From positions 307 to 64,306 of IMG/VR virus record IMGVR_UViG_3300042890_003772: a stretch of 64,000 nucleotides of DNA; one strand, given 5' to 3'. Of this stretch, positions 5,392-63,789 are shown piece after piece. The notes under the pieces were generated by a model, which did no database searches, was not told where the DNA came from, and was given only the letters and a program-made list of their open reading frames with translations. This DNA is from a virus. Both the position numbers and the translations under genes were made by a program. Each line of letters opens with the position of its first letter. The stretch's first letter is position 1.

Positions 5392-5448
5392 TCTAAACCT
5401 CTTTATAATTGATTTAAAATACTATTGTAGTATATTTTAACATAAAAA

Positions 5449-6570: not shown

Positions 6571-6609
6571 TTATGCACCTTTTGATTTAATTGATTGCTT
6601 TAAAATAAT

Positions 6610-6638
6610 ATTATAGTACAATTATAGTGTTAAGTCAA
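6610..6638 (-). promoter_or_regulatory. Consensus sigma70-type early promoter, TTGACT-N17-TATAAT
   Basis: The reverse complement reads ttaacTTGACTtaacactataattgtacTATAATattatttta, which would drive rnlA. Confidence 0.6.
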
Positions 6639-8003: not shown

Positions 8004-8029
8004 AATAATCACCACGATAAAAAAATAAT

Positions 8030-21784: not shown

Positions 21785-21896
21785 TGCTTGATTACACCTA
21801 AATATTAAATTATTATAATATTTATAGCTAATAGTTCTGTTTTCATTGCTTGATTACACCTAAATATTAAATTATTATAATATTTATAGCTAATAG
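21767..21896 (-). repeat. Tandem 62-bp duplication carrying a late promoter box and the first codons of gp21
   Basis: ctaatagttctgttttcattgcttgattacacctaaatattaaattattataatatttatag occurs twice in a row. The minus strand reads TATAAATA at 21819-21826 and at 21881-21888. Confidence 0.85.
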
Positions 21897-39288: not shown

Positions 39289-42200
39289 ATGTTAGCAGAT
39301 GGTTTACAGTTCCTAGAAGGGTCGGTCAATACTAATCTTGTTTTGCCCGCCTTGTCAGAAAGCGGTAGAAATGCATTAGTTAATGTTAATGTTGGTGAAG
39401 TAGTATTTCAGACGACCGGTCAAAAAGGTATTTACGTCTATAATGGTACTAGCTGGCAATATGGGCTATCTATCGCATTAGATAGCACAAATCCAACTAC
39501 ATTATTTGGATATGGAATTACAGATGCAGTTCGTGCAAATGCCGCCATTACCGCAGGTACTGGAACTAAAATCACATATGATAATAAGGGGCTTGTAACA
39601 GGGTCTACTACATTAGACATTAGTGATATTCCAAACCTACCAACCTCTAAATTAACTGGACAAATAACTATAGGTCAATTACCTGACCTAGGATCAACTG
39701 CAAGCACATATGTAAAAGTATATGTTGATGCAACAGGTCGTGTAGTTGGTGGTGAAACTACTGCCACATTAGCTACATTAGGTATTACTGATGCAATTCA
39801 AGCTAATACCGCAATTACAGCCGGTACCGGCACAAAAATAACTTACGATTCAAAAGGTTTAGTAATATCATCTGATGTATTAACCGCGTTAGATATACCA
39901 GATATAGAGACCAGTAAATTACTAGGTAGAATTACACCGGAACAATTACCATTGCTCGGTGATTCTGTTGCTGGGTACAGCAGTGTATCGATAGATGCAA
40001 CTGGTCGTGTGGTTGGAGGTAGTAATCCAACTACATTAGGTGGCTATGGTATTATCGATGCTGTGTTAGCTAATTCACAGATTGTAGGTAGCACAGGCAC
40101 TAAAATTACCTATGATTACAAAGGGTTAGTTACATCATCAACGCAGTTAATTGCGAGTGATATTCCATCGTTAGATGCAAGTAAAATTACCACGGGTAGA
40201 TTTTCAGCTAATTTCTTACCATTTATTGAGACATTAACACCTGGTACGTATACTAAAGTAACTGTTGATAGTACTGGTCGAGTAATTGCATGTGAAACAC
40301 CTACTACTATAGATGAGTATGGTATTACTGATGCAATGCGAGCTAATCCCGCAATTACACCAGGTACTGGTACAAAAATTACATATGATGCGCAAGGGTT
40401 AATCACAGATGCTGCAGTCTTAGCACCAACCGATATTCCAAGCTTACCAGCATCAAAAATTGTATCAGGGGTATTAAGTTCAAGTTTATTGCCAAACTCA
40501 GGTGTAACAGCTGGTGATTACTACAAAGTAACTGCAGATATACATGGTCGTATCACGGCAGGTGCTAGTACATTAGATATATCTGATATTACCGACTTAT
40601 CTACGGTATTAGCAAGTAAAGCTACTCCTGCAAACATCACTGACGCTATTGATGCAGTGTATGGTGGTGTAGGTGTACCTGGAAACACACTTAAAAAGAT
40701 TTACGATATTGCAGTTGCTAGCAACCACGAGATAACAGTCGCTGATACAAATGCAAGAATTGGAACATACGTTTCATCATTACCTACCAACATCTTTGTT
40801 GTTAACGATGGTGACGGTGAATGGGCGTTATATAAAGCGTTAGCAACCGGCCTAGCCACTAACAATAACGTTATAAAATTATCAGATCCTAGTATATTAA
40901 ACACCGCGAATGGTTATATACCTGAAGATCGTACAAATAAAGATACTGATCCAACATTAGCAGCTAATAGTGATATTAAATATCCATCACAAAAAGCAAT
41001 AAAAGCGTATGCCGATACAAAGGTACCTAAAAATGCGTTAATTACAGCTGGTACAGGAGCAAAGCTTACCTACAATCAATTTGGTTTGGTAACCGGAACT
41101 GGTACATTACTAGCTAGTGATATTCCAAACCTGGATGCAAGTAAAATTACATCCGGTATCTTACCAACATCAGTATTACCCACCTCAGGTGCTAACCCAT
41201 CACTATCATACGTAAAAGTAAACGTTGATACATATGGCCGGGTAATATCTGGATCAACAGAGTTAGCAGCAGGTAATATACCGTCATTAGATGCAAGTAA
41301 AATTACATCTGGTAAATTACTAGTTAGTGTAATGCCAAACTTAGGTACACCTGTATCAACGTACACCAAGGTACGTATTGATAGTACTGGTCGTGTGGTA
41401 TCTGGCTCAAATCCAACAGCACTCGCTGATTACGGAATAACAGACGCTGTTACAGCTAACCCAACCATTGCAGCTGGCGCTGGGATTAAGATAAGTTATG
41501 ATAGTAAAGGGTTAGTTACAGGCTCAACATCATTAGTAGCCAACGATATTCCAAACATATCCGCTGCAAAAATTACCTCAGGTGTTTTAAATAGCTCCGT
41601 ATTACCTACATCAGGTATTGCTGAAGGTAATTATAAATCAGTTACCGTAGATTCACATGGTCGAGTAATATCTGGTACAAACACATTAACATTTGATGAT
41701 GTATCTGGATTAACATCTGCGATTACAAACGCAGCATCTAATGCAAGTGTATCAACAGCAATTAATACAGCAATTTCTAACTTACGAGCTGATGTACCTT
41801 CTCAAGGAAGTACATTAAAAGGCTTGTACGACATGGTGCTGGCGAGCAACCATGAGCTTAACGCTGCAACAGTTGTAGCTAGAGATGCATTAGAAATTGT
41901 ATCGTTACCAACTAACGTATTTGTATTAGACGATGGTGACGGGCAATGGGCGTTATATAAAGCATTATATTCAGACTCACAGTTTAACGATTACCTCATT
42001 ACGCATCCAACAGCTGTTGCTAGCGATAGATATGTAAAGGTATCTGATCAAACATCATTGAACGCATCACTGGGTACATCTACTGAGGTTAAAACTAATA
42101 AATCAACAAATATTGAGCTACTTGATGGATTGTCAGCAAGTAACGTTAAATATCCAACACAGCTTGCAGTAAAAACATACGTTGATAACCAAATACAAAC

Positions 42201-45200
42201 AGTTGCAACTGTAGTTGCCGATTCATTAACAGATATTATTACAACATCTGCACTACCAGAAGGTGCTGATTTAGCTCTTAATAAATTAGTATTAGATAAT
42301 GATCCAAGATTATCTGGTAATAGTGCACCGATGTCTCATCAACATCCAATATCAGATATTATTGATTTAGCTACAATACTTGACGGTAAAGTTAACGCAA
42401 TCAGTATACCAGCTGGTAGCGGTCCATATATTACATATAATAATCAAGGTGTTGTAACTGCATCTAGACAACTAACCTCATTAGACCTACCGTTAGTCCC
42501 AGTAAATAAAATTGACGGTGTATTAACATCAAGTCAGTTACCAACTAATACTGTATATACTGATGTTAGCGGTACGATTGCAGTTAGTAAATTACCAAGT
42601 ACTGTTTTGTTATCAACAAACCTACCTGGTGATATAGTAACAACTAGTACTGGTGGTGTAATTGCTCAAGCTAAGTTACCAACTACATTAGTATACGTTG
42701 ATGGAACTGGTAAAATACCTGAAAGCTTAATACCGGCATCGTCTCAAGTATCGTTAATTGATACCATTACAGTTGCCGATTTAATTGAATTAAACGCTAA
42801 CACAACCGCGGTAGTTGGTACAATCGCAATTGTTGTTGATACTAGCGAAACATATGTACAAACAACCAATGGTTGGACCAAATTAAATGTACCGTCAGGA
42901 ACTGTATCATCTATTAATGGTCGCTCAGGTGTAATTAGTAAAATACTACCAGCTGATATCGATGGAGATTTTGTAAACTCTATTAATGGCCGTACTGGTA
43001 TAATCGATAAAATTCATACATCAGATTTAGATGGTAATTTTATTGAATCTATTAATGGTAAATCTGGGGTTATTAGTAAAATTGAACCAGCAGATATTAC
43101 TGGGTTATTTGATGATACATTAGCTACAGTAACATTATTAGCTGGGGTGTTACCAGAATTTACCGGTGATGTGTATTCAGAGATTGGTACAAACGTTTTA
43201 ACTTTAAATGATGTTCCAGGATTAGATACAGAAGTATTCTACTCATCAATTAAAGTTAACAGCAAAGGTATTGTTGTTGAAGGTAGTGAGGTTGGTAACG
43301 GTGGTTCAATAATATCATTTGAACAAACTGATGCACGATACGTACTTAAATCATACTTAGGACTAAAAGATACTGCTGGTGGTGTTGCTGGACTAAACAG
43401 TTCAGGTGTATTACCGCTAACTGTATTGCCAGCATTCACTGGAGACCTTACATCACCAGCTGGTTCAAATGTATTAACATTAAAAACTATTGCTGGTTTA
43501 AACAGTACTAATACATTCTCATCTGTTACTGTAAACCGTAAAGGTTTAGTAACTGGTGGTTCAACTCAAATTGTATATAATAAAGCACAAGCCGACGCAT
43601 TATTCTTATCTATTAATGACGCTGGTGCAAAAAATACAGCTAATGGATATGTCGGATTAAACGCTGATGCGGTGATGTATGCAGCTCAATTACCTGGGTT
43701 TGTTGGTGATGTAACTGCACCAATTGGATCACGTACATTAACATTGAATACTATACCAGGTGTTACACCTGGTGCAAGTTACTCTACTGTTGTTGTAAAT
43801 AGTAAAGGTATTGTAACATCAGGTACATTAGCTTCAACAGCTGCGGGTGATATTGCTGCAACATATGTAACAAAAGTATCATTAGGTAATAGAAACGCAG
43901 CGAACGGATACCTAGGATTAAATTCAAGTGCAAAAATAGACTCACAATACTTACCGTTATTATTCTTAAACAATAGATTTATTGTAAACACAATAGCTGA
44001 ACGTAATGCAATCACAGATGCACATATGGGTGATATTGCTATCGTTAATGGTTCGGTAGGTAAATGTTATATCTTAAATGCAGCAACCTCTGCTAATCCT
44101 GATAATTGGGTAGAATTGGTAACATCTAATAACGTTTACCAAGTAAACGGTAAAGCTGGTCTAGTAGAACTAGTATTAAGTGATATTAATGGTACACTTG
44201 ATATCAGTAAACTACCTATTCGTACTGCTGGTGATGTAATTACCGATCCAACAACGCGTGAATTAAGATTAAAAGATGTTGGTGTTAACGCACTAGCTAG
44301 TGGAGCAACTGCAACATATAAATCGGTAACTGTTAACAGTAAAGGTTTAGTAACGGGTGGATCAAATCCAACTACATTAGCCGGATACGGCATTACTGAC
44401 GCAATTAGTACACGTAGATTACCACTGCACGATGATGGTGAGGCACCATTCTTGACACTAGGTTTCGAAGGTACCATCGACCCAACCATGGTACAGAGTG
44501 ATATATTCACTGTAGACGAATTACCGGTTGATGGAGTAATTAACAAATTATATAGAATAGTTGGCACTAATAAGTCATACGTTTGGGACGGTACTGCATT
44601 TGTACAAATGACTACAACTGATGCAAGCTTGCTAAATGTTGGGACATTACCTGCAGCGAGATTACCAGCATTTACTGGTGATGCAACTGTACCGCTTGGT
44701 ACGAGTGCAATAACCTTAGCTAATACTGGTGTAACAGCTGGAACATACACACAGCTAACTGTTGATACTAAAGGTCGAGTAATATCAGCTACACAAGCAC
44801 CACCACCAGACGCATATACTAGATCACAAGCGGATGCAAAATATGTAACGCAAACATCGTTAGGTCTTAGAAATACCGCAAACGGGTACGTTGGGTTAGA
44901 TAGTAGCAATAAAATTGATTCCAACTTATTGCCATCGATATCAATAAGTGATATTTTCCCGGTAAACACATTAGCTGAACGTGATGCATTAACTACAACA
45001 CATATTGGTGATATGGCAGTTGTAGGTGGTGAGGTTAACGTTAACTATATCTTATCTGGTGTTAATCCTCGTGTGTGGACACCAATGGCTAACCCAATGG
45101 GTGGAGTCGTTGCAGTTAACGGTTCAACTGGATCAATAACATTAACGTTAGATAACATTTCTGGATCACTACAAAACTCCGCACTACCAGCGTTTGTCGG

Positions 45201-48200
45201 GGATATTACATCTGTAGCTGGATCTAATACGCTAACAATTGATAAAATTCGTGGAATAACAGTTGATGCAGATTTTAATGCAACTACATTACCTACAGAT
45301 GGATATTCATTAACGTATATGGCGAGTAGCGGTAAAGCTACTTGGAGACCAACCGGTACAGATGCAACTAACTTAATAACTGGTATTTTACCTGTTGGTA
45401 GATTACCTGCATTAACAGGTGACATCACAACGGTGGTGGGACACAATGTTGCAACAGTTGGTAAATTAAACGGTATTACATTAGATACCGGGTTTACTAC
45501 CGTTACACCACCAACTAATGGTTACGTGTTAACATATGCATCAGTTGGATCAAAAGCTACTTGGAAAGCATTAGATGCAAGTAAAGTTACTGTTGGTACG
45601 TTACCAGTAGCAAGACTACCGGCGTTAACAGGTACAGATGTAACAGCTGATGCTGGAACGGGGGTATTAAAGTTATCAACAACTGGTGTTGCTGCAGGCA
45701 CATATACTTCAGTTACAGTTAACACTAAAGGTCGAGTTACAGCTGGAACGGTAATACCAATCGTAGACGCATATTCAAAACTTGTATCTGATAACAAATA
45801 TGTTGCAAAATCAGTATTAGGTAACAGAAATACTGCTAATGGTTATGTTGGGTTAAATAGTGATAACAAAATGAACGTAGTTCATTTACCCGCTATTACC
45901 ATGAATATTATATTTGCTGTAGCTACATTAGCGCAAAGAGATGCACTAACAACTCAGCATATCGGTGATGTTGCTATTGTTGGTGGTACAGTTAATCGCA
46001 CATACATCTTATCAGCTGTTTCACCTAAAGTTTGGATTGAATTGCTGAACCCATTAGGTGGAGTATTATCACTCAATGGAGCTACAGGTGTTGTAAACTT
46101 AACACTAGATAATATTGAAGGTACATTACACTCAGGTGCATTACCAGCATTTACTGGCGATGTAACGTCAATGGCTGGTGATAATGTACTAGAATTAGCT
46201 GCAACTGGAACAGCTGGTACATACTATAAAGTTACTACTGATGTTAAAGGACGTGTAACATCAGGTGCAACAACACTTGCTGTTAGTGACTTACCAGAGC
46301 TACCATGGAGCAAAGTATCAGTCGATATGCCAACAACCTTGACTGGGTTTGGCATCACTGATGCGATTAATACATCAAGACTGCAAGCTGGTGATAATGG
46401 TGAAGATAAACTAGCTACCGTTGGTAGTAATGGTGCAATTGCTCCTAGTTTACTACCAGCGTTTACTGGTGATGATATTACATCAGCAGTTGGTTCGAGC
46501 GTATTAGCGTTAACCGAAACAGGTGTAACTGCAGGTACTTATACTGCAGTTACAGTAGATGTTAAAGGTCGTGTAACATCCGGCTCGTATGCTCCACCAC
46601 CAGATGCATATACAAAAACGGAAACTGACGGTAAGTATGTACTTAAAACAACTCTAGGTACAAGAAATGCTGCAAATGGCTGGGTTGGGTTAGATAGCAA
46701 TAGTAAAATTAGCGCAAGTTTATTGCCATCACTTGCTATTAACTCAATATATCCAGTTACCACAATAATAGCTCGTGACGCATTAACTACTACACATTTA
46801 GGTGATGTTGCGATTGTTGGTGGATCGGTAAATGTTAACTATATGTTAACATCGGTAACTCCAACAAGAGTATGGACACCAATTTCAAATCCATTAGGTA
46901 GTGTAACTTCCATCAATGGTTCAACAGGTGTAGTTACATTAGACCTATCAAATATAACTGGGACATTACGCCTCGACTCATTGCCAACATTTACTGGTGA
47001 TGTATCGCTATTACCTGAAACAAGCATACTTAAAGTTTTAAGCTTGAATGGTATAGTATTAGATACTACACATAATGAAGCTGTACTGCCAAACAACGGT
47101 AATGTATTAACTTACTCGTCAGCTGATAGTAAAGCTATGTGGCAGTCATTAAGTGCAAATCATATAGCTACAGGTACGTTATCTGCATCTGTAATGCCTG
47201 CATTTAATGGTGATGCCATTTCAACAACAGGTAACGCAAACCTAACAGTTGTTGCTTTAAACGGTATAGCATTAGATCGTGAATTTGATCCTTTCTCGCA
47301 CCCAACTAATAATCATGTACTTTCATATGATACTGCTGGAGTTAAAGCTACATGGAAAGCGTTAAGTGCGAGTAATATATTAACTGGTACATTGCCAGCT
47401 GGTAGATTACCGGAACTTATAGGTGATGTTACTTCAAACGCTGGATCTAATACATTACTATTAACTGATACTGGTGTTGTTGCAGGTACTTACAGTAGTG
47501 TAACCGTAGATACAAAAGGTCGAGTCGTATCAGGTACAGCTGTACCCAACACTGATGCATATTCAAAAATTGTCTCAGATAACAAATATGTTGCAAAAGT
47601 AACATTAGGTGGTCGTAATGAGATTAACGGATTCGTTGGATTAAATAGTGAACGTAAAATTGATGCTGTATATTTACCAGATATCACATTAAACGACATC
47701 GCTGTTGTATCAACCATAGTTGAACGAGATGCACTAACTACTAATCATATCGGTGATATCGCAATAGTTGGTGGTTCTGTTAATAAAACATTTATTTTAT
47801 CATCTACTTCACCACGCACATGGACAGAGTTAGTAAATCCATTAGGCGGAGTAACATCGTTAAATGGTCAAACAGGCAATGTAAATTTAACGTTAAGTAA
47901 TATTAACGGTATATTAGATACATCAGCATTACCAATGTTTACAGGTGATGTTACTTCACTTGAAGGTAGTAACGTATTAACTTTAGCAACTACTGGTGCA
48001 GCCGGTACCTATTATAAAGTAACTACAGATACAAAAGGTAGAGTAACAGCCGGTGTAGCCGCATTAGTTAGCAGTGATATCCCACCACTTAGCTGGAGTA
48101 AGGTTGTATATGGTAGACCGACAACACTAAGTGGCTACGGTATTACCAACGCAATTACTTCTGATAGATTACCGGTAGGTGATGATGGTGTTAGTAAGAT

Positions 48201-49674
48201 AGTAGTATTAGGAAATAACGGTAAGATCGATGAGGCTTTATTGCCATCACTTGCCATATCTGATACATTTACGTTCTTTGACACTGGTGCTACTAAAGAC
48301 AGTATTACAATAGAAGGTAGCCCTGCGCTATATGCGCAACGTGGTGATATTGCTATCGTAGGCGGTATTGTAAATTCTACATACATATTAACAACCAACA
48401 CCCCTGGTAATATAACTGATTGGGTGCAGTTAAGAACTGGATCTGGCGTTACATCTGTTAACGGACAAACTGGTACAGTTGTGTTGGATTACAATGCAAT
48501 TGATAGTGTATCTAGTAGCTTCGTAACACCTGGATCATATAGCAGCGTAACAGTTAACGCACATGGTCGAATTACTGGTGTAAACGGTACACGTTATGCA
48601 GCACTTAATAGTTCTAACGTAATTAGTGGATCTGCAGTACCCGCATTTACTGGTGGTGATGTAATATCGGAAGGTGGAACATTAGTATTATCTTTAGCGG
48701 ATAGTGGTGTTACAGCTGGTACCTACAATATGGTTACAGTTGATGCTAAAGGTCGTATTACTGAGGGTACACTAACTACCGTATTAGATGACACCGGAGT
48801 AACCCCAGGTACATATAAATCAGTAACGGTAGATATTAAAGGTCGAGTAACTGGTGCAACTAACCCAACCACATTAGCTGGCTATGGGATTACCGATGGG
48901 TTTACACCTAATGATGCAACGTGGGACATGTTCTCAACGACAGGTGAAGCTACCACAGTTCCCGGTGGAGAGCCCGTAATTATAGGGGGTGTAAGTAGTG
49001 TTAATGGTAAGATCGGTACAGTTGCATTAGTAAAAGGTGATCTAGGGTTAGGAAATGTAAATAATACTACCGACGCAGCTAAACCAATATCTACCGCAAC
49101 ACAAGCAGCATTAGATACCAAACAAGCGGTGCTAGTAAGTGGTACTAATATTAAAACCATTAACGGTGTATCGATTATTGGAAGTGGTGATGTTACTATT
49201 AGTGGTAGCGGTGAAGTTGGAACTACTACGGGGACTGGAACAACCACCGTATTAAGTATATCACCTGTATTAGTAACACCAGATATTGGAACTCCATCAG
49301 CTGGGAACTTAACAAATTGTACAGTTGATGGTACTAACGGTGTTGGATTTATAAATGTACCACAGCTTAGCAAATCTGTGTCATACACATGCGTATTGTC
49401 AGATGCGGGCAAACACATTTATCACCCAACAAGTGATTTAAATACGCGTACATATACTATTCCATCAAATATGTTAGTACCGTATCCAATTGGTACTGCA
49501 ATACAATTTGTTAATATGTCACCAAACGCAATCAACATCGCAATCGATACTGATACGATGTATCTATCAGGACCTGGAACAACTGGTACACGTATCTTAG
49601 CATTATATGGTACAGCTACTGCACTAAAAGTAACTGATACAACTTGGATTATTTCAGGCACAGGATTAACCTGA
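39289..49674 (+). CDS. Giant tail fibre protein (3461 aa), proximal long-tail-fibre-like, with hierarchical internal repeats
   Basis: About 17 copies of Y-x-x-V-T-V-D-x-x-G-R-V, 7-8 copies of a 90-aa GTGTKITYDxKGLV unit, and 5 super-repeats of about 0.9 kb. The C-terminal 120 aa is shared with the next fibre gene. Confidence 0.7.
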   Translation: MLADGLQFLEGSVNTNLVLPALSESGRNALVNVNVGEVVFQTTGQKGIYVYNGTSWQYGLSIALDSTNPTTLFGYGITDAVRANAAITAGTGTKITYDNKGLVTGSTTLDISDIPNLPTSKLTGQITIGQLPDLGSTASTYVKVYVDATGRVVGGETTATLATLGITDAIQANTAITAGTGTKITYDSKGLVISSDVLTALDIPDIETSKLLGRITPEQLPLLGDSVAGYSSVSIDATGRVVGGSNPTTLGGYGIIDAVLANSQIVGSTGTKITYDYKGLVTSSTQLIASDIPSLDASKITTGRFSANFLPFIETLTPGTYTKVTVDSTGRVIACETPTTIDEYGITDAMRANPAITPGTGTKITYDAQGLITDAAVLAPTDIPSLPASKIVSGVLSSSLLPNSGVTAGDYYKVTADIHGRITAGASTLDISDITDLSTVLASKATPANITDAIDAVYGGVGVPGNTLKKIYDIAVASNHEITVADTNARIGTYVSSLPTNIFVVNDGDGEWALYKALATGLATNNNVIKLSDPSILNTANGYIPEDRTNKDTDPTLAANSDIKYPSQKAIKAYADTKVPKNALITAGTGAKLTYNQFGLVTGTGTLLASDIPNLDASKITSGILPTSVLPTSGANPSLSYVKVNVDTYGRVISGSTELAAGNIPSLDASKITSGKLLVSVMPNLGTPVSTYTKVRIDSTGRVVSGSNPTALADYGITDAVTANPTIAAGAGIKISYDSKGLVTGSTSLVANDIPNISAAKITSGVLNSSVLPTSGIAEGNYKSVTVDSHGRVISGTNTLTFDDVSGLTSAITNAASNASVSTAINTAISNLRADVPSQGSTLKGLYDMVLASNHELNAATVVARDALEIVSLPTNVFVLDDGDGQWALYKALYSDSQFNDYLITHPTAVASDRYVKVSDQTSLNASLGTSTEVKTNKSTNIELLDGLSASNVKYPTQLAVKTYVDNQIQTVATVVADSLTDIITTSALPEGADLALNKLVLDNDPRLSGNSAPMSHQHPISDIIDLATILDGKVNAISIPAGSGPYITYNNQGVVTASRQLTSLDLPLVPVNKIDGVLTSSQLPTNTVYTDVSGTIAVSKLPSTVLLSTNLPGDIVTTSTGGVIAQAKLPTTLVYVDGTGKIPESLIPASSQVSLIDTITVADLIELNANTTAVVGTIAIVVDTSETYVQTTNGWTKLNVPSGTVSSINGRSGVISKILPADIDGDFVNSINGRTGIIDKIHTSDLDGNFIESINGKSGVISKIEPADITGLFDDTLATVTLLAGVLPEFTGDVYSEIGTNVLTLNDVPGLDTEVFYSSIKVNSKGIVVEGSEVGNGGSIISFEQTDARYVLKSYLGLKDTAGGVAGLNSSGVLPLTVLPAFTGDLTSPAGSNVLTLKTIAGLNSTNTFSSVTVNRKGLVTGGSTQIVYNKAQADALFLSINDAGAKNTANGYVGLNADAVMYAAQLPGFVGDVTAPIGSRTLTLNTIPGVTPGASYSTVVVNSKGIVTSGTLASTAAGDIAATYVTKVSLGNRNAANGYLGLNSSAKIDSQYLPLLFLNNRFIVNTIAERNAITDAHMGDIAIVNGSVGKCYILNAATSANPDNWVELVTSNNVYQVNGKAGLVELVLSDINGTLDISKLPIRTAGDVITDPTTRELRLKDVGVNALASGATATYKSVTVNSKGLVTGGSNPTTLAGYGITDAISTRRLPLHDDGEAPFLTLGFEGTIDPTMVQSDIFTVDELPVDGVINKLYRIVGTNKSYVWDGTAFVQMTTTDASLLNVGTLPAARLPAFTGDATVPLGTSAITLANTGVTAGTYTQLTVDTKGRVISATQAPPPDAYTRSQADAKYVTQTSLGLRNTANGYVGLDSSNKIDSNLLPSISISDIFPVNTLAERDALTTTHIGDMAVVGGEVNVNYILSGVNPRVWTPMANPMGGVVAVNGSTGSITLTLDNISGSLQNSALPAFVGDITSVAGSNTLTIDKIRGITVDADFNATTLPTDGYSLTYMASSGKATWRPTGTDATNLITGILPVGRLPALTGDITTVVGHNVATVGKLNGITLDTGFTTVTPPTNGYVLTYASVGSKATWKALDASKVTVGTLPVARLPALTGTDVTADAGTGVLKLSTTGVAAGTYTSVTVNTKGRVTAGTVIPIVDAYSKLVSDNKYVAKSVLGNRNTANGYVGLNSDNKMNVVHLPAITMNIIFAVATLAQRDALTTQHIGDVAIVGGTVNRTYILSAVSPKVWIELLNPLGGVLSLNGATGVVNLTLDNIEGTLHSGALPAFTGDVTSMAGDNVLELAATGTAGTYYKVTTDVKGRVTSGATTLAVSDLPELPWSKVSVDMPTTLTGFGITDAINTSRLQAGDNGEDKLATVGSNGAIAPSLLPAFTGDDITSAVGSSVLALTETGVTAGTYTAVTVDVKGRVTSGSYAPPPDAYTKTETDGKYVLKTTLGTRNAANGWVGLDSNSKISASLLPSLAINSIYPVTTIIARDALTTTHLGDVAIVGGSVNVNYMLTSVTPTRVWTPISNPLGSVTSINGSTGVVTLDLSNITGTLRLDSLPTFTGDVSLLPETSILKVLSLNGIVLDTTHNEAVLPNNGNVLTYSSADSKAMWQSLSANHIATGTLSASVMPAFNGDAISTTGNANLTVVALNGIALDREFDPFSHPTNNHVLSYDTAGVKATWKALSASNILTGTLPAGRLPELIGDVTSNAGSNTLLLTDTGVVAGTYSSVTVDTKGRVVSGTAVPNTDAYSKIVSDNKYVAKVTLGGRNEINGFVGLNSERKIDAVYLPDITLNDIAVVSTIVERDALTTNHIGDIAIVGGSVNKTFILSSTSPRTWTELVNPLGGVTSLNGQTGNVNLTLSNINGILDTSALPMFTGDVTSLEGSNVLTLATTGAAGTYYKVTTDTKGRVTAGVAALVSSDIPPLSWSKVVYGRPTTLSGYGITNAITSDRLPVGDDGVSKIVVLGNNGKIDEALLPSLAISDTFTFFDTGATKDSITIEGSPALYAQRGDIAIVGGIVNSTYILTTNTPGNITDWVQLRTGSGVTSVNGQTGTVVLDYNAIDSVSSSFVTPGSYSSVTVNAHGRITGVNGTRYAALNSSNVISGSAVPAFTGGDVISEGGTLVLSLADSGVTAGTYNMVTVDAKGRITEGTLTTVLDDTGVTPGTYKSVTVDIKGRVTGATNPTTLAGYGITDGFTPNDATWDMFSTTGEATTVPGGEPVIIGGVSSVNGKIGTVALVKGDLGLGNVNNTTDAAKPISTATQAALDTKQAVLVSGTNIKTINGVSIIGSGDVTISGSGEVGTTTGTGTTTVLSISPVLVTPDIGTPSAGNLTNCTVDGTNGVGFINVPQLSKSVSYTCVLSDAGKHIYHPTSDLNTRTYTIPSNMLVPYPIGTAIQFVNMSPNAINIAIDTDTMYLSGPGTTGTRILALYGTATALKVTDTTWIISGTGLT

Positions 49675-51924: not shown

Positions 51925-53082
51925 ATGACGGTTACTGTAACAAATAATATTACACCTAATTATGCAATAGCATTACCATCCTTATCAAATAGGGTGGTTG
52001 ATGATGTTCCAAGATTAATTAGCGCTGTAAGCACTATTGATACAGTACTATCATTAAAATTAGATGCTAGCACAGTAGGTGCAATTAACGGAGTAGCATC
52101 ATTAGGTGATGATGGTAGACTATCCACCACTCAGCTCCCCGCGTTTATTGGCGATGTTACTTCTACAACAGGTTCAAATACCTTAAATCTATCCACAACC
52201 GGTGTAACTGCAGGTACATATAATTCAGTTACAGTAGACACAAAAGGTCGAGTAACAGCAGGATCCGTATCACCGGTGCTACCGGACCAATCAGGTCAAA
52301 CTGGTAAGTATTTAACCACAAACGGTGTAGACGCATCATGGAATAACGTTACAAGCGGTGTAATTCCAACTATCATACAGTATTCAAATTATACTGCAGC
52401 TGCAAATGATCTAGTTCGGTGTAACACTGCAACCGGTGCATTCAATATAATTTTTCCACTGAATCCAGTGGATGGTACAATAATTGGAGTTGTAGATGTA
52501 GGTAATACATTTGGTATTAATCATTTAACTATAGTACCGGTAGGAGGTACAATTGAAAATGATTCATCATATATATTAGATATTAATGGCACATATGCAT
52601 CATTTATATATAATACATATAATACTAATTGGCGTATATTAGAAACACCTATTGAGTTTAGCGTTAGTACAGTGCCAACTTGGAACCAAAACACTACAGG
52701 TACTGCTGCAGGGTTAAGTGTAACATTAGCAGTAGATAGTGGCGGTACAGGTGTAAAAACAATACCTACAGGTAGTGTGTTACTAGGAAATGGAGCATCC
52801 GCAGTTCAAACAGTAGCACCAGGTGCAAGTGGTAATGTATTAGTGAGTAACGGTGCAACTTGGACCAGTGGGGCAGCTCCATCATCTATACCTACACAGA
52901 CAGGTAATGATGGTAAATTTTTAACTACTGATGGTACGGTACCATCTTGGCAATCGGTGGCGGGTACACCAACATTGGCAACATTTTATTGGAATGCAGA
53001 CGAACTTATGGTAAATCATTTTGATCCATTATTAGTACCATCAATCGTAGATGGTGAATTTATTTTGGTGTATAACGGATGA
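51925..53082 (+). CDS. Tail fibre protein paralog B (385 aa)
   Basis: N-terminal NYAIALPSLSNRVVDDVPRLISAVSTID. GKYLTTNG..SW motifs and a C-proximal LVRCNT...DINGTYASFIY..NWRIL module. CGATAAATA at 51881. Confidence 0.6.
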   Translation: MTVTVTNNITPNYAIALPSLSNRVVDDVPRLISAVSTIDTVLSLKLDASTVGAINGVASLGDDGRLSTTQLPAFIGDVTSTTGSNTLNLSTTGVTAGTYNSVTVDTKGRVTAGSVSPVLPDQSGQTGKYLTTNGVDASWNNVTSGVIPTIIQYSNYTAAANDLVRCNTATGAFNIIFPLNPVDGTIIGVVDVGNTFGINHLTIVPVGGTIENDSSYILDINGTYASFIYNTYNTNWRILETPIEFSVSTVPTWNQNTTGTAAGLSVTLAVDSGGTGVKTIPTGSVLLGNGASAVQTVAPGASGNVLVSNGATWTSGAAPSSIPTQTGNDGKFLTTDGTVPSWQSVAGTPTLATFYWNADELMVNHFDPLLVPSIVDGEFILVYNG

Positions 53083-57908: not shown

Positions 57909-58715
57909 ATGCCTACTGTAATTGACAATAAGACCTCAAACTACGCTATACCGCTACCCGCGGTATCAAATCGATTAGTAGATGATATCGCTAGACTTTC
58001 TAGTGCATTGTTTACTATTGATCTTGTTTTAGCGTTAAAGCAGGATCAATCTACTGCAGGTGCAATTAACGGGATAGCTACATTAGATAATAACGGCCGC
58101 TTAACAGCTACGCAATTACCTGCATTATCAGGAGATGTAACACTAAACGCCGGATCCACTGCATTAACACTATCAAACACTGGGGTCTCCGCAGGGACGT
58201 ACAGCTCTGTTACTGTTGATACTAAAGGTCGTGTAACATCGGGGACAACGGTGTCTTCATCGACTCTCCAACCTACCGGAATTATAACAACAAATTATAC
58301 TGCATCTGTATACCAGCTTATCAAAGCAAGTACTGTTGATGGTATTATTACTATTATATTGCCGTCTACTCCGATAGACGGTGCAATGATATGTATTGTT
58401 GATGTTGGAAATCATTGTGGATTTAATGCAGTAACGATTCAATCCGGTGCAGGTGATACGATTAATTTTACATCATCGCAGGTATTAAATAATAATGGTA
58501 TGTGCATTACATATGTGTACATAGCCACTTCTGCCAATTGGCAGATATATAGCACCTCATTAGCAACTAGCGGTTCGACAAGTGGGTTTAATGGAGTTGA
58601 AACAAGATTAGATGGGGGAGCTCCATACATGGATGCAAGTACAACGATTATAATTGATGGCGGATCACCGATTACGATATTAGGTGTTCAAGATATTGAT
58701 GGAGGTAGTGAATAA
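57909..58715 (+). CDS. Tail fibre protein paralog C (268 aa)
   Basis: N-terminal NYAIPLPAVSNRLVDDIARLSSALFTID. A VTVDTKGRV motif and a C-terminal module. Confidence 0.6.
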   Translation: MPTVIDNKTSNYAIPLPAVSNRLVDDIARLSSALFTIDLVLALKQDQSTAGAINGIATLDNNGRLTATQLPALSGDVTLNAGSTALTLSNTGVSAGTYSSVTVDTKGRVTSGTTVSSSTLQPTGIITTNYTASVYQLIKASTVDGIITIILPSTPIDGAMICIVDVGNHCGFNAVTIQSGAGDTINFTSSQVLNNNGMCITYVYIATSANWQIYSTSLATSGSTSGFNGVETRLDGGAPYMDASTTIIIDGGSPITILGVQDIDGGSE

Positions 58716-60412
58716 TGACAACGAGAATACAATTTAGACGCGGATTAGCGTCAAATTGGGCGATAACAAATCCTACATTATATCAAGGTGAATTAGGGCT
58801 TGAGTTAGATACTAATAATATAAAGATAGGTGATGGGGTAGCTGCCTGGAACTCGTTGAATTATAGTAAATTTTTACCTGTACAAACAAATAACAGTGGT
58901 AAATATTTAACTACTAATGGTACAGATGCATCGTGGGCATCAACCACTGGAACTGGCACATTAGTTCTATCAACATCTCCAACATTAGTAACACCTATAC
59001 TAGGAACACCCACATCTGGTGATTTAACTAATTGTACTAATGCGGTCGGATATGGGTTAAAATCAGCTACAACAATAGTGAGTGTAAGTGCCGCAACAGC
59101 ACCATCTGCAGGTCAAGTATTAGTCGCCACCAATTCAACGACAGCACAATGGCAAACACCTGCAGTATCGTTACCTACTCAGACTGAAAACAGTGGTAAG
59201 TACTTAACAACAGATGGATCGAGTGCATCATGGGCATCTACCACCGGTACGGGAACATTAGTTTTAAATATATCACCAACTATTGACGCGCCAAGAATCA
59301 CTACAACTGTACTAGTTGGACCAAGTACTGCAGCAAACCTAACACGCTTTCCAAACGCTGTAGCTGTTGTATCTAGTACGGTAGCTGGTATACAACATAA
59401 TGAATCACATAATATTGGATTAATTGCGGAGGGAACTGCAAATGCTGCTGATTCTACTATTTACGGTATCGGTGTTTATGGGGTTGGTTATACTAACGCT
59501 GGAACTCGTTCTGGAGGAATAGTTGGTGAAGGACATGTATCAAACACTACAGATGGTGGTAGTGCGATAGGTGTACGGGGATACTCAAACGATACTCATG
59601 CAGGTGGTATGAATATCGGGCTATATGCTGATGCTGGTGGTAGTGCGGTTAATAATTACGCGTTATACATGAACAGTGGTGATATTACTAATATTGCCGC
59701 ACAAACATGGAATTTAGGTGGGAACCTAACATTTAGTGGAGCCTTTACAGTAGCAGTACCAACATTGAGCTTAACTAATGCATTAAGTGTTGCGAGTGGT
59801 GGGACTGGTACAAGCTCATTAGCGCTTAATAATATTTTATTAGGTAATGGTACTAACGCTGTGCAAGCGGTACCACCGGGCACATCTGGTAATATATTAA
59901 CCAGTAACGGTAACACGTGGGTTAGCGCTACACCCACTGCAACATTACCGTTGCAAACCGGTAATGCTGGTAGGTTTTTAGCTACTGATGGAACTGGAAC
60001 ATCATGGCAAGCTGTATCTAGTGGTATGGCACCAACACCAATAATGACAGCAGACTATACAGCGGTTACAAATGATTTAGTGCGTTGCAATACAACTAGT
60101 TCTTCGTTTAATGTTACATTACCTTCTGCTCCAATTGACGGAGCATTTGTAGGTATTATAGATATAAATAATACATTCAGTACAAATAATCTCACGGTGC
60201 TGCCAGGTGTAGGTAAGACGGTTGAAGGTAATAGCACATACATATTAGACATAAATGGTGCGTATATTGCGTTTATATACTCCACCACATCTACTGATTG
60301 GCATTTAATGTGTATACCACCTGCAACAGCACCTGCAACAGCTGTTACAAGTGGTGGTAGCTCTTCATCATCAGTGGGTTTTGAAGCAAATTTCATGCTA
60401 ATGGGAGCATAA
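58715..60412 (+). CDS. Tail fibre protein (565 aa)
   Basis: Repeated GKYLTTxG..SW and GNILTSNGNTWVS motifs. C-terminal LVRCNT...DINGAYIAFIY..DWHLM module. Confidence 0.6.
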   Translation: MTTRIQFRRGLASNWAITNPTLYQGELGLELDTNNIKIGDGVAAWNSLNYSKFLPVQTNNSGKYLTTNGTDASWASTTGTGTLVLSTSPTLVTPILGTPTSGDLTNCTNAVGYGLKSATTIVSVSAATAPSAGQVLVATNSTTAQWQTPAVSLPTQTENSGKYLTTDGSSASWASTTGTGTLVLNISPTIDAPRITTTVLVGPSTAANLTRFPNAVAVVSSTVAGIQHNESHNIGLIAEGTANAADSTIYGIGVYGVGYTNAGTRSGGIVGEGHVSNTTDGGSAIGVRGYSNDTHAGGMNIGLYADAGGSAVNNYALYMNSGDITNIAAQTWNLGGNLTFSGAFTVAVPTLSLTNALSVASGGTGTSSLALNNILLGNGTNAVQAVPPGTSGNILTSNGNTWVSATPTATLPLQTGNAGRFLATDGTGTSWQAVSSGMAPTPIMTADYTAVTNDLVRCNTTSSSFNVTLPSAPIDGAFVGIIDINNTFSTNNLTVLPGVGKTVEGNSTYILDINGAYIAFIYSTTSTDWHLMCIPPATAPATAVTSGGSSSSSVGFEANFMLMGA

Positions 60413-60413
60413 C

Positions 60414-60740
60414 GTGGCAACATCGTACAAAGTTTTGGGTCAATTAAATCCAACTGCAACGACTATGACTAATCTATACACTGTACCAGGTGCAACATCA
60501 GCCGTGTGTAGCACGTTATCAGTTGCTAATCTTGGACCATCTACAACTTTTAGAATCGCTGTTAGACCTGTAGGTGCAGCATTAGTTAATCAACATTATA
60601 TTGCATATGATACACCAGTAAATCAATACGACACTGTGTTTTTAACGATTGGTGTAACTCTTGCAGCAACTGATATTATTTCAGTGTACGCGGGCACAGC
60701 AACTGTAGCATTTAGCTTGTTCGGGTCGGAGATAGCATAA
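60414..60740 (+). CDS. Hypothetical small protein (GTG start)
   Basis: GGGAG lies 5 nt upstream of GTG 60414. Confidence 0.35.
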   Translation: MATSYKVLGQLNPTATTMTNLYTVPGATSAVCSTLSVANLGPSTTFRIAVRPVGAALVNQHYIAYDTPVNQYDTVFLTIGVTLAATDIISVYAGTATVAFSLFGSEIA

Positions 60741-62701
60741 TGTCTGCTATTAATATGAAAGCTAAAACAATGGCAACTAAGGCTATGAATTTAGCTGCAC
60801 AGCGAGTTAATTCAACTAGAAATCCACTACCTTACACAAGACCAACTGAATGGATGACACTTCCCACTGTACTTGCCACAGACCAAAAATTTGTTGGATT
60901 GCACATGGTTACAGTTGACAGTTGTTTTTGTGCTTTATCTGCATCTGGTGCATATACAGTTGATTGGGGTGATGGTTTAACAGAAAACTTCGCTGCTGGC
61001 GTTACGGCTTATCATCAATATAATTACAATACACTAACAACAACCAGCACATCAAATGCAACTGTAACATCGTTTGGGTATAAACAAGCAATTGTAACTG
61101 TTACTCCACAGGCTGGTAATAACTTAGCCGCATTAAATCTCAATGTAAAACATAATCAAACTGGATTACAAGCGTATAGTTCGGGATTTGTTGATATTGC
61201 TATTGCTAGTCCTTATTTGGTTGATTGTTTTATTGGAAGTTCGGATAGAGCTGGAACGCAAGCAATAACAATGCAAGACTTGGAAATAGTAAACATTGTT
61301 AAATCTGCAGTATTGGATTTTAGTTATTGCTTGCTCGGGTGTTCTTCTCTACAATCAGTTATTGCTATTGACACTTCTGCTTGTATTACTGCTACAAATA
61401 TGTTCGGTAGTTGCTCTGGCTTGCAAACAGTTCCTTTGTTTAATCTAGCAGCTTGTACTACTGCTTCTGGTATGTTCAGTAGTTGCTCTGGCTTGCAAAC
61501 AGTTCCTTTGTTTAATCTAGCAGCTTGTACTTTTACTGCAAGTATGTTCACTAATTGCTATAGCCTACAAACAGTACCTTTGTTTAATTTAAGTGCATTA
61601 ACTAATGCTTCAAATATGTTTAGTAATTGCTATAGCCTACAAACAGTACCTTTGTTTAATCTAGCAGCTTGTACTAATACTTCAAATATGTTCATTAATT
61701 GCCTTAGTCTGCAAACAGTTCCTTTGTTTAATTTAAGTGCATTAACTAATGCTACAAGTATGTTCAGTAGTTGCCGTAGCTTACAAACAGTTCCTTTGTT
61801 TAATTTAAGTGCAGTAACTAATGCTACTAGTATGTTCATTAATTGCCTTAGTCTGCAAACAGTTCCTTTGTTTAATTTAAGTGCATTAACTAATGCTACA
61901 AGTATGTTCAGTAGTTGCCGTAGCTTACAAACAGTTCCTTTGTTTAATTTAAGTGCAGTAACTAATGCTACAAGTATGTTCCAGAGTTGCTCTGGCTTGC
62001 AAACAGTACCTTTGTTTAATCTAGCAGCTTGTACTAATGCTACAAGTATGTTCAGTAGTTGCTCTGGCTTACAAACAGTTCCTTTGTTTAATTTAAGTGC
62101 AGTAACTAATGCTACAAGTATGTTCATTAATTGCCTTAGTCTGCAAACAGTTCCTTTGTTTAATTTAAGTGCATTAACTAATGCTACAAGTATGTTCAGT
62201 AGTTGCCGTAGCTTACAAACAGTTCCTTTGTTTAATTTAAGTGCATTAACTAATGCTACAAGTATGTTCACTAGTTGCCTTAGTCTGCAAACAGTTCCTT
62301 TGTTTAATTTAAGTGCAGTAACTAATGCTACAAGTATGTTCAATAGTTGCTCTGGCTTACAAACAGTTCCTTTGTTTAATTTAAGTGCAGTAACTAATGC
62401 TACAAGTATGTTCAATAATTGCCTTAGTCTGCAAACAGTTCCTTTGTTTAATCTAGCAGCTTGTACTACTACTACAAGTATGTTCAGTAGTTGCTATAGC
62501 CTAGTAAAAGCAACATGCACAGGAACTAAAGTATCAATTGATTATACCAACTGCAAACTATCAGCAACCCAACTAAATGATATATACACTAACTTAGCAT
62601 CAGGTGTAGTGAGCCAAACAATAACGGTAACCGGTAACTGGGGGTCCGCTACATCCACAACATCAATAGCCACAGCAAAAGGCTGGACTGTAACAGGGTA
62701 A
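60740..62701 (+). CDS. Repeat protein: 16 tandem 24-aa units (MFxxCxxLQTVPLFNLSAxTNATS), LRR-like/DUF285-like beta-solenoid; putative receptor-binding or decoration protein
   Basis: A 72-bp period from about 61330 to 62510, with units nearly identical at the DNA level. Confidence 0.65.
   Translation: MSAINMKAKTMATKAMNLAAQRVNSTRNPLPYTRPTEWMTLPTVLATDQKFVGLHMVTVDSCFCALSASGAYTVDWGDGLTENFAAGVTAYHQYNYNTLTTTSTSNATVTSFGYKQAIVTVTPQAGNNLAALNLNVKHNQTGLQAYSSGFVDIAIASPYLVDCFIGSSDRAGTQAITMQDLEIVNIVKSAVLDFSYCLLGCSSLQSVIAIDTSACITATNMFGSCSGLQTVPLFNLAACTTASGMFSSCSGLQTVPLFNLAACTFTASMFTNCYSLQTVPLFNLSALTNASNMFSNCYSLQTVPLFNLAACTNTSNMFINCLSLQTVPLFNLSALTNATSMFSSCRSLQTVPLFNLSAVTNATSMFINCLSLQTVPLFNLSALTNATSMFSSCRSLQTVPLFNLSAVTNATSMFQSCSGLQTVPLFNLAACTNATSMFSSCSGLQTVPLFNLSAVTNATSMFINCLSLQTVPLFNLSALTNATSMFSSCRSLQTVPLFNLSALTNATSMFTSCLSLQTVPLFNLSAVTNATSMFNSCSGLQTVPLFNLSAVTNATSMFNNCLSLQTVPLFNLAACTTTTSMFSSCYSLVKATCTGTKVSIDYTNCKLSATQLNDIYTNLASGVVSQTITVTGNWGSATSTTSIATAKGWTVTG
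61330..62510 (+). repeat. Tandem array of 72-bp near-identical repeats (16 copies) inside the CDS
   Basis: Direct reading: ...atgttcagtagttgc(c/t)(c/g)t(a/g)gc(t/c)t(a/g)caaacagttcctttgtttaatttaagtgca(g/t)taactaatgctacaagt... reiterated. Confidence 0.9.
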
Positions 62702-62705: not shown

Positions 62706-62915
62706 ATGAGTTTTTTTAGAATAGATAATGATAATTTACATGAGGCTCCTAATTTTGTGTACGCACCTGATTATGAATTATCCATAGATGAAAAGGATAC
62801 TTATACATATCCAACTGAAGGTGGCTGGTATTGGTTTGATACTATAGCAGAAGCAAGAGAGTTTTTTAATATACCAGAGCCCATCATTGATGAAGGATTA
62901 GTAAATGACGAATAG
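62706..62915 (+). CDS. Hypothetical small acidic protein
   Basis: 69-aa ORF. Confidence 0.35.
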   Translation: MSFFRIDNDNLHEAPNFVYAPDYELSIDEKDTYTYPTEGGWYWFDTIAEAREFFNIPEPIIDEGLVNDE

Positions 62916-63789
62916 ATTATCATCGGCTCTACAAGTTGTTACACCGGGAACAACTGGTAATGTATTAACTAGTAATGGATCAACATGGGTAAGTGCAACC
63001 CCTGCTGTATCACTACCAACTCAAACAAGCAATACAGGTAAATACTTAACAACTGATGGTACAGTTGCAGCATGGGCGACTATATCGAGTGGATTGACAT
63101 CAACTCCGGTACAAACATCAGCTTATACAGCTGCAGTATATGAGTTAGTACGTACCAATACAACATCTGGGTCATTTACAGTTACATTACCTGCATCACC
63201 AATTGATGGTGCTCAAATTGGTGTTATCGATATAGCTAAAACATTTGGATCGTATCCATTAACATTAGCGCCAGGGGTTGGTGCAACTATTGAAGGTGAT
63301 AGTACTGCAATGTTATTAGATATTAATGGTGCTTATGTTGCGTTTGTATATACGGCATCCCTAACAAATTGGCGGTTATTATCTATACCATTTGGAGGTA
63401 ATGGTGTGATTAGTAACGGTGGCTTAGTACCAACTACTGTTAAAATTGCAAATTATTCTACATCCAGTAATGAGTTAGTTAGATGTAATACATCAGGTGG
63501 AGCGTTTAGCGTGACTATGCCTGCAGCTCCATTAGATGGTGCAATCATTGGATTTGTTGATATAAATAACACATTTGCAACCAACAATTTAACAATCTTA
63601 CCAGCTGGTAAAACAATTGAGGGAGACGCAACCTCATATGTACTAGATATAAGTGGAGTGTATGTGTCGTTTATATATACATCAACAACAGGTAATTGGC
63701 GGTTATTAGAAACGCCAACAATATCGTTATCATCATCTACCACATCGATTGGTAAATCGATAGCAATGTCCATCGCCTTTGGGGGGTAA
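62905..63789 (+). CDS. Tail fibre protein with two copies of the C-terminal LVRxNT...NWRLL module
   Basis: GNVLTSNGSTWVSATPAVSLPTQTSNTGKYLTTDG motif. The module repeats at about 63143-63386 and 63473-63713. Confidence 0.6.
   Translation: MTNRLSSALQVVTPGTTGNVLTSNGSTWVSATPAVSLPTQTSNTGKYLTTDGTVAAWATISSGLTSTPVQTSAYTAAVYELVRTNTTSGSFTVTLPASPIDGAQIGVIDIAKTFGSYPLTLAPGVGATIEGDSTAMLLDINGAYVAFVYTASLTNWRLLSIPFGGNGVISNGGLVPTTVKIANYSTSSNELVRCNTSGGAFSVTMPAAPLDGAIIGFVDINNTFATNNLTILPAGKTIEGDATSYVLDISGVYVSFIYTSTTGNWRLLETPTISLSSSTTSIGKSIAMSIAFGG

Follow-up and report, generated by a model that had tools for sequence, protein, structure and literature searches.

A DUF285/PARCEL-type solenoid gene with an in-frame 72-bp repeat array in the fibre locus of an uncultured jumbo phage

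Organization of the solenoid gene

The DNA considered here (64,000 nucleotides, positions 307 to 64,306 of the IMG/VR virus record IMGVR_UViG_3300042890_003772; hereafter the window) carries, within a run of fibre-like genes, an open reading frame (ORF) of 653 amino acids (aa) that contains a long array of tandem repeats. This ORF belongs to the DUF285/PARCEL branch of the leucine-rich repeat (LRR) superfamily and encodes about 20 solenoid turns, 15 of which are near-identical. Its parts are as follows:

60740..62701, + strand: solenoid ORF, 653 aa (end coordinate including the stop codon), encoding a DUF285/PARCEL LRR-like beta-solenoid protein
60815..61144, + strand: N-terminal beta-sandwich (jelly-roll-like) domain, aa 26-135, with the invariant motif YTVDWGDG
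61145..61399, + strand: irregular first solenoid turns, delimited from the AlphaFold2 strand pattern and the sequence, including a degenerate unit
61328..61399, + strand: this degenerate unit, just before the array, CLLGCSSLQSVIAIDTSACITATN
61400..62479, + strand: array of 15 complete 72-bp (24-aa) units, consensus MFSSCLSLQTVPLFNLSALTNATS, with an MF spacing of exactly 24 residues
62480..62698, + strand: half unit and C-terminal cap (C-cap), aa 581-653; a 16th 'MFSSCYSL' half unit runs into the unique cap

Tandem Repeats Finder detects a period of 72 at 61378..62494 (15.5 copies, 83% matches, score 1312) as well as a period-144 higher-order repeat at 61378..62500 (7.7 copies, 87% matches, score 1532). 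When unit boundaries are defined by splitting the protein at 'MF', the 144-bp higher-order repeat consists of units 5-6, 7-8 and 11-12. Every copy is in frame with the ORF. Units 5, 7 and 11 are identical in DNA (72/72), and the mean nucleotide identity is 90% for units 5-14 and 84.5% for all 15 units, units 1-4, 9 and 15 differing from the core at 10-19 of the 72 positions. The longest exact repeats of the array span 141 bp (offset 144), 129 bp (offset 288) and 127 bp (offset 432). A first-pass annotation, made from the sequence alone, had described sixteen near-identical 72-bp in-frame repeats. Repeat finding, the ORF list and the unit split confirm its coordinates, unit length and motif, as well as the reading frame and the near-identity of the core; the count is rather 15 full units plus partial ones, and the uniformity of the units was slightly overstated.

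Within the unit, positions M1, F2, C5, L8-N15, A18 and T20 do not vary. Variation is found at positions 3, 4, 6, 7, 17, 19 and 21-24, and codon 16 varies only synonymously. The variable sites fall on codon positions 1, 2 and 3 in numbers of 11, 7 and 9, respectively; therefore, the variation between units is not mainly synonymous. The C-cap that closes the protein (aa 581-653) reads ...CKLSATQLNDIYTNL...QTITVTGNWG...IATAKGWTVTG. N-x-S/T sequons occur twice in each core unit (N-L-S and N-A-T), which makes about 25 over the array, whereas most members of the wider family have T-N-M at the second site; these sequons might matter, for instance, for a cytoplasmic N-glycosyltransferase.

Family assignment and predicted fold

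The 653-aa protein matches Pfam DUF285 (PF03382) over five stretches (154.8 bits for a cut-off of 25, E 9.8e-46) and NCBIfam TIGR02167, 'PARCEL repeat-containing surface protein' (32.3 bits for a cut-off of 30, E 6e-8), which bears out the DUF285/LRR-like resemblance proposed at first pass. Pfam LRR_5 (PF13306) is not among its matches at E <= 1; PF13306 is carried by several of its homologues. A phmmer search of the sequences in PDB retrieves only LRR proteins with 24-residue repeats (LRRTM at E 4e-10, repebodies and VLRs).

The AlphaFold2 model, built from a 30-sequence alignment (predicted local distance difference test score, pLDDT, 87.7; predicted template modelling score, pTM, 0.76), begins with 25 disordered or helical residues, which are followed by a beta-sandwich, then by a long solenoid and finally by a small alpha/beta cap. 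Each 24-residue turn of the solenoid is made of three or four short strands, and helices are absent from it. The top ranks of a Foldseek search against PDB (probability 1.00) are the BspA-type LRR structures 4gt6 and 4h09, the pneumococcal adhesin PcpA and TLR/LGR ectodomains (LGR5). The TM-scores to the BspA-type and PcpA structures are low (0.2-0.37), curvature and length being different. The best matches in BFVD are uncharacterised proteins annotated as 'bacterial surface protein 26-residue repeat' or 'BspA family LRR' and come from uncultured phages, cultured jumbo phages and giant viruses. On the basis of strand periodicity and structural matches, the modelled fold is that of the LRR superfamily, handedness and curvature aside. 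The beta-solenoid, for which the first-pass annotation had called for a structure prediction, is thus what the model displays.

The first 25 residues form a low-confidence helix ahead of the N-terminal domain (N-domain), and neither a signal peptide, nor a lipobox, nor a transmembrane segment is apparent in the sequence of the protein. The fold matches of the N-domain are weak and include a weak resemblance to carbohydrate-binding modules. A PKD domain, the first guess from the WGDG motif, was rejected since neither a PKD hidden Markov model (HMM) match nor a PKD/Ig fold was found. In a set clustered at 50% identity, 2664 representatives contain the N-domain, which nearly always lies close to the N-terminus. 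In addition, four very large proteins (P0244-P0247, 2385-4087 aa) contain 18-34 tandem copies of a segment that matches positions ~36-84 of the N-domain profile (the YTVDWGDG region), so part of this domain is related to a repeat module found elsewhere.

A conserved three-gene cassette

Fibre-like genes occupy the + strand of the window from about 39 kb onwards, and neighbours of the solenoid gene match tail-fibre PHROG families, Mtd_N and the chaperone domain Peptidase_S74, in agreement with the fibre-locus placement made in the first-pass annotation. The genes that flank the solenoid gene are:

58715..60412, + strand: upstream fibre gene, 565 aa; Mtd_N domain at the N-terminus, phrog_4302-type domain at the C-terminus
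60414..60740, + strand: 108-aa ORF, conserved upstream partner, with a GTG start and a stop codon that overlaps the ATG of the solenoid gene (TAATG)
62706..62915, + strand: 69-aa ORF, conserved downstream partner, overlapping the start of the next fibre gene; motif APNFV.APDYEL...YTYP..GWYWFD
62905..63789, + strand: downstream fibre-like gene, 294 aa, with two phrog_4302-type domains

The solenoid gene is translationally coupled to the 108-aa gene, and a GGAG lies eight bases upstream of its ATG. The order of the cassette (108-aa ORF, solenoid gene, ORF of about 65 aa) is kept in several related loci (L001-L005, L007/L087 and L008), and the upstream fibre gene holds the same place in L167, L168 and L004. 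Among the loci retrieved with the N-domain, a homologue of the 108-aa gene lies directly upstream in at least 51, and a homologue of the small downstream ORF is found in 52 of the 96 with room for one.

The family of the 108-aa protein counts at least 7986 database homologues, nearly all of 108-109 aa, and this protein is more conserved than the surrounding fibre genes. Median identities to the window, taken over 24 distant loci, are 63% (108-aa protein), 68% (C-cap), 38% (N-domain) and 41% (small ORF). Therefore, the conserved end of the solenoid protein is its C-terminus, which is co-conserved with the 108-aa protein; across the family, the C-cap is the most conserved part of the solenoid protein. 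The 108-aa protein has weak PHROG matches to the N-terminal part of longer tail-fibre families. The 69-aa protein has no match in Pfam, PHROG, NCBIfam or PDB. Its relatives (about 63-90 aa, e.g. L002 1892..2122, L003 4108..4380 and L004 12332..12523) follow the solenoid gene in many phages and share the motif APNFV.APDYEL...YTYP..GW(Y/H)WF(D/N)...A..FF. The small ORF could encode an assembly factor or a chaperone.

Evolution of the array between phage lineages

Four orthologues (window, L087, L008 and L002) were compared. The DNA of their N-domains is 88% (L087), 81% (L002) and 78% (L008) identical to that of the window, and they contain 15 (window), 11 (L087), 8 (L008) and 7 (L002) complete units. 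The mean identity of units is 0.83-0.92 within a genome versus 0.75-0.83 between genomes, and for 39 of the 41 units the most similar unit belongs to the same genome. Even synonymous choices are specific to genomes: the codon of Pro12 is CCT in all units of the window and L087, CCC in the 8 units of L008 and CCA in 6 of the 7 units of L002. The proportion of synonymous differences (pS) is lower within arrays (0.10-0.30) than in the flanks compared between orthologues (0.31-0.52). Taken as a whole, the clustering of units by genome and not by position, the genome-specific codons and the low pS within arrays indicate concerted evolution, i.e. arrays that are homogenised within each lineage. The idea of a recent or concerted expansion, raised at first pass, is supported by these comparisons.

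Units have also exchanged segments. In the window, codons 6-7 encode SG, YS, LS or RS and codons 16-19 encode LAAC, LSAL or LSAV; all four combinations of the multi-nucleotide variants of these two blocks occur, so the units have recombined. The array is a mixture of two unit lineages, one carrying 'CTA GCA GCT TGT' (LAAC), which resembles LGAC of L008, and the other 'TTA AGT GCA TTA' (LSAL), a block identical to that of L002. This mixture could result from recombination between phages or from ancestral polymorphism.

The unit number ranges from 4 to 21 in 31 complete relatives, with identities within an array of up to 0.92. The homogeneity of the window array lies at about the 95th percentile at the protein level (among the top 120 matches); at the DNA level, several relatives stand above the window (0.88-0.92 versus 0.80-0.85). 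The window array was therefore rejected as an outlier, homogenisation being a property of the family.

Rearrangements between otherwise identical genomes

The 108-aa and 69-aa proteins of the window were found on about 12 short contigs from other samples. Five contigs inform on the structure of the array:

L167: 0 mismatches in 6326 nt upstream; array an exact mosaic of five window segments (+1, -1 and -2 units), 13 units; junctions share 28, 16, 30 and 24 bp
L168: 0 mismatches in 2388 nt; 144 bp missing; junction shares 141 bp
L169: 3 mismatches in 1861 nt; 432 bp missing, 9 units; junction shares 127 bp
L175: whole array spanned, 8 units; junctions share 53, 141 and 71 bp
L177: in-register 288-bp deletion; junction shares 37 bp

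Furthermore, a contig of 4033 nt (sample 3300059473) with the same 108-, 69- and 294-aa neighbours encodes a product of 605 aa, i.e. two units shorter than that of 653 aa, which is the length expected from the L167 arrangement. Exact look-ups in the protein collection found neither the 653-aa protein of the window nor any of four modelled 605-aa variants. The proposal of the first-pass annotation that the array is a substrate for recombination changing copy number is thus supported by orthologues with 7, 8, 11 and 15 units and by contigs with identical flanks that have 13, 9 and 8 units.

The main objection is that the array itself is real and fixed in nature, and that its copy number and the differences between strains result from mis-threading of short reads by de Bruijn assemblers. 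Most of the short contigs end or begin inside the solenoid gene, about ten assemblies breaking in the array: four of the five contigs with the 108-aa gene end inside the solenoid gene, and almost all of those with the 69-aa gene start inside it or just after, which shows that assemblers fail there. The exact repeats of 141, 129 and 127 bp equal or exceed common maximum k values, and the 653-aa protein is absent from the protein collection, in which its neighbours are present. The junctions of L168 (-144 bp) and L169 (-432 bp) and the middle one of L175 lie exactly inside the 141- or 127-bp repeats, so these junctions could equally be loop-skipping products of assembly, and the count of 15 units in the window is itself uncertain. 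In contrast, the four novel junctions of L167 and that of L177 involve only 16-30 and 37 bp. The smallest k of the JGI metaSPAdes workflow is presumably 33; as the junctions of L167 are shorter than this, the rearranged order must exist in reads. Moreover, no assembler creates orthologues (80-90% identity) with 7, 8 and 11 units and lineage-specific codons. A purely artefactual origin of the differences is therefore unlikely: as judged from the assembled sequences, the structure of the array really does differ between otherwise identical genomes. The caveat of an assembly collapse that accompanied the first-pass annotation remains pertinent for the exact copy number, which is doubtful because of the breaks and of the 141/127-bp junctions, and does not extend to L167, whose junctions are too short for a collapse. 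As short-read metagenome assemblies break or collapse at the solenoid gene, its length in comparisons of fibre loci is not trustworthy.

Reading frame and antisense strand

The jumps in array size are all multiples of 72 bp (+/-72, 144, 288, 432, 576 and 648 bp). As 72 bp is 3 x 24 and the array is internal to the ORF, recombination alters the length of the solenoid and the order of unit variants and never the frame. The 'length or phase variation' suggested at first pass therefore holds for length and composition and fails for phase (on/off switching): no shift of frame or of promoter spacing, the hallmark of a phase-variable contingency locus, is found in these variants.

The array is also open on the opposite strand:

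61630..62415, - strand: antisense ORF, 261 aa; the consensus unit is free of stop codons in one of its reverse frames

On the antisense strand, reading stays open for at most 287 codons in the window, 58 in L087, 54 in L002 and 140 in L008. As already suggested at first pass, this ORF is a by-product of the repeat, since the reverse frame is stop-free in the consensus and is not conserved (58 codons in the closest orthologue, L087). No inverted repeat of at least 10 nt (7-nt seed) within 80 nt was detected across 61300..62560, and the folding of four units as single-stranded DNA does not depart from that of shuffled sequences (z = -0.28). The palindromy known from PARCEL repeats was considered as a cause of the open antisense frame and rejected, as dyad symmetry was not found and the antisense ORF is not conserved.

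Relation to known systems

The best solved structural matches of the solenoid, the BspA-type LRR proteins (LRR_5; 4gt6, 4h09 and PcpA 4cp6), are likewise LRR-superfamily solenoids and adhesin-type proteins of the cell surface. The LRR_5 HMM, however, misses the window protein, the TM-scores are only 0.2-0.37 and BspA-type proteins are bacterial and carry secretion signals. In receptor-binding proteins of dairy phages, which have collagen-like repeats, and in the streptococcal alpha C and M proteins, which have tandem repeats, in-frame changes of repeat number by homologous recombination alter length and epitopes. The window array resembles them by in-frame changes of number in a putative surface protein, the frame being kept. 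Their repeats are short or unstructured, or else coiled-coil or collagen-like, whereas the window unit is predicted to be one folded turn of a solenoid, and the order of units changes as well.

A tail-module protein with a comparable architecture is encoded by the P2-like Klebsiella phage ST16-OXA48phi5.4 (QBP07953, 1008 aa; L006 3327..6353). It combines Tail_P2_I (gpI), Big_2, a beta-sandwich (FTVDYGDG) and BspA/DUF285 LRRs, and its gene lies just before a small ORF and a tail-fibre gene. As in the window, a beta-sandwich is followed by repeats, but the LRR is covalently fused to Tail_P2_I and Big_2, the repeats are only about 30% identical to those of the window, and the locus lacks the 108-aa partner and the C-cap. 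This natural fusion places such a module on a baseplate.

PARCEL/DUF285 repeats have been described as variable in number and sporadic in distribution, with links to mobile elements, phages and giant viruses among them (Roske et al. 2010, PMC2996958). The window protein passes both HMM cut-offs, contains tandem units of about 25 residues in which hydrophobic positions are conserved and polar ones vary, and belongs to a family whose repeat number varies between relatives (4-21 units here). It departs from the published PARCEL proteins in several ways (PMC2996958). Its unit has 24 residues, not 25, and reads MF..C.SLQTVPLFN, compared with W(D/N)(T/V)S.V..M..MF..A..FNQ.I in the example sequences of that paper. 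Its coding DNA is devoid of the dyad symmetry behind the name PARCEL, and it has no membrane-targeting signal. Its units are unusually homogeneous (three identical copies), whereas most PARCEL tracts are made of unique units. Finally, its model is an all-beta solenoid, in contrast to the amphipathic helices proposed in 2010.

LRR and beta-helix modules have been proposed as accessory host-recognition elements around the baseplate of the jumbo phage Goslar, where DUF7941-LRR/beta-helix proteins would form a 'fibre cloud' (bioRxiv 10.64898/2026.04.21.720040). The window phage is also a jumbo phage. Unlike it, Goslar belongs to the Chimalliviridae and its proteins use a DUF7941 attachment module; their homology to the window protein is not shown, and their role is itself a prediction.

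Proposed function and alternatives

Taking these data together, the explanation retained here, with moderate confidence, is that the gene encodes a DUF285/PARCEL solenoid that would act as an accessory adhesin of the virion surface and whose array is turned over by recombination. The following model can be drawn. The protein is made from the late tail-fibre operon, coupled to the 108-aa protein and followed by the protein of about 65 aa. It would be displayed on the baseplate or the fibres, anchored by the conserved C-cap, perhaps together with the 108-aa protein, as suggested by the conservation pattern of both. The variable face of the solenoid and the carbohydrate-binding-module-like N-domain would then be distal and contact the host surface. 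As for the array, the data show that unequal homologous recombination or replication slippage between in-register units adds, deletes and reshuffles whole 72-bp units, so that arrays are homogenised in each lineage and vary, even between phages with identical flanking DNA, in length and in the order of variant units, without on/off switching. An adhesin is favoured because of the late fibre operon of conserved order, the absence of a secretion signal, the gpI-LRR fusion, the proposal made for Goslar and the detection of two DUF285 proteins in purified AaV virions (PMC7507832).

Several points weigh against this explanation, besides the uncertain unit count and the repeat-embedded junctions of L168, L169 and L175. 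Virion display and host binding, like the host-recognition or decoration role raised at first pass, are argued from gene context and analogy. No recognisable fibre-attachment domain was found in the solenoid protein, its N-domain has weak fold matches only, and the PHROG families that match it are all of 'unknown function'. The 108-aa protein, its putative anchoring partner, has no Pfam or NCBIfam domain and no PDB relative by profile search. The predicted strand LQTVPLFN is invariant in all units; if it forms the ligand face, this face is not diversified there. The ratio of non-synonymous to synonymous differences (pN/pS) between units (0.44-0.83) is elevated compared with the flanks (0.20-0.25), yet below 1. 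As for the literature on phage DUF285 or LRR receptor-binding proteins, only annotations and predictions were found, and no functional study.

Some of these points would suit a structural role, in which the solenoid would be a rigid rod that tunes the reach or the spacing of fibres, or that shields them, its unit number being nearly neutral. The invariance of the LQTVPLFN face extends across the family, relatives have 4 to 21 units without loss of the gene, and pN/pS between units is below 1. Against such a spacer or decoration, which appears distinctly unlikely, the variation between units is concentrated at ten positions and affects all three codon positions (11, 7 and 9 sites), the solved LRR and BspA-type relatives are binding modules (PcpA, TLRs), and the N-domain weakly resembles carbohydrate-binding modules.

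A role in or on the infected cell (interaction scaffold, superinfection exclusion or effector), the gene being merely located amid fibre genes, is less probable still. Such a role would account for the unrecognised attachment domain and the unknown function of the matching PHROGs, and bacterial PARCEL proteins do sit on the cell surface (PMC2996958). It is difficult to reconcile with the lack of signal peptide, lipobox and transmembrane segment, with the tight coupling of the gene in a late fibre operon whose order is kept in many phages, and with the LRR fused to the baseplate protein gpI of a P2-like phage and the DUF285 proteins of AaV virions.

Finally, targeted hypermutation, with the array as the variable region of a diversity-generating retroelement or of a similar programmed mutator, is in practice excluded. 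Variable positions are clustered and the upstream fibre gene carries Mtd_N, but the latter is only an N-terminal domain of fibre proteins. A scan of part of the ORFs of the window revealed no reverse transcriptase, unit differences involve all four bases and multi-nucleotide blocks, and the variant arrays are all exact mosaics of segments already present, with zero new substitutions.

The phage and other features of the window

The DNA of this uncultured phage has a low G+C content (about 35%). Its major head protein shares 62% identity with its counterpart in the Xanthomonas jumbo phage XacN1, with similar matches in related jumbo myoviruses, and the window also encodes T4-type topoisomerase II subunits, a baseplate hub/lysozyme and an RNA ligase/tail-fibre-attachment homologue. 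The genome that hosts the array is that of a T4-superfamily jumbo myovirus. No near-identical DNA was found among cultured phages, and no exact 30-mer of the repeat unit in IMG/VR.

Elsewhere in the fibre locus, a phrog_4302-type C-terminal domain (...YELVR.NT..G.F.VTLP..P.DGA.IG..DI...F....LT..P...IEG.....LDI.G.Y..F.Y.....W.L) occurs in four ORFs (51925..53082, 57909..58715, 58715..60412 and, twice, 62905..63789), which suggests a family of paralogous fibre tips. An ORF of 3461 aa (39289..49674), with multiple tail-fibre-type PHROG repeats and no Pfam domain, appears to encode a giant fibre protein.

Two unusual cargo genes lie in the structural region, just upstream of the head genes. One encodes a Sir2-family protein (34037..34702, E 3.5e-39) and the other a 592-aa protein with a weak, sub-threshold PRTase-like match (29417..31195). 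A cluster resembling RNA-repair genes (4025..8015, - strand) encodes an RlaP-family nucleotidyltransferase, a T4 gp63-like RNA ligase/fibre-attachment catalyst and a protein with a polynucleotide-kinase-like domain. Two further repeats were observed. A perfect 62-bp tandem duplication (21766..21896; 2.1 copies, 100% match) lies between divergent genes, in AT-rich intergenic DNA. The other (20848..21087), a degenerate repeat with GAT/GAA-rich units of 12/18/21 bp, can be read as an acidic Asp/Glu-rich tract; as it lies just outside the ATG of a 1236-aa ORF (16896..20606, - strand), its translation would require a longer alternative start or a separate small ORF.

Significance

Earlier work had already described or annotated PARCEL/DUF285 repeats, including their varying number and their occurrence in phages and giant viruses. 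What is worth recording here is a conserved three-gene cassette with a ubiquitous 108-aa partner, the conservation of the C-terminus instead of the N-terminus, and a clear concerted evolution of the array together with a reshuffling of whole turns at the strain level. The genomes of phages, giant viruses and bacteria commonly contain DUF285/PARCEL repeats, to which no function has been assigned; this locus provides a concrete and testable setting.

A broader proposal, put forward tentatively and judged rather doubtful, is that the cassette is a widespread, undescribed host-recognition module of thousands of mostly environmental phages, in which the array would serve as a recombination-driven diversifier of a C-terminally anchored adhesin. 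If so, whole-turn cassettes with different surface residues would be shuffled, duplicated and deleted fast enough to differ between otherwise identical genomes, tuning both the length and the binding surface of the adhesin, and the orientation of the protein would be opposite to that of classical fibres, in which the N-terminus is conserved and the C-terminus variable. If the protein is indeed an adhesin of the virion, the shuffling of whole solenoid turns would be a simple, retroelement-free route to host-range variation.

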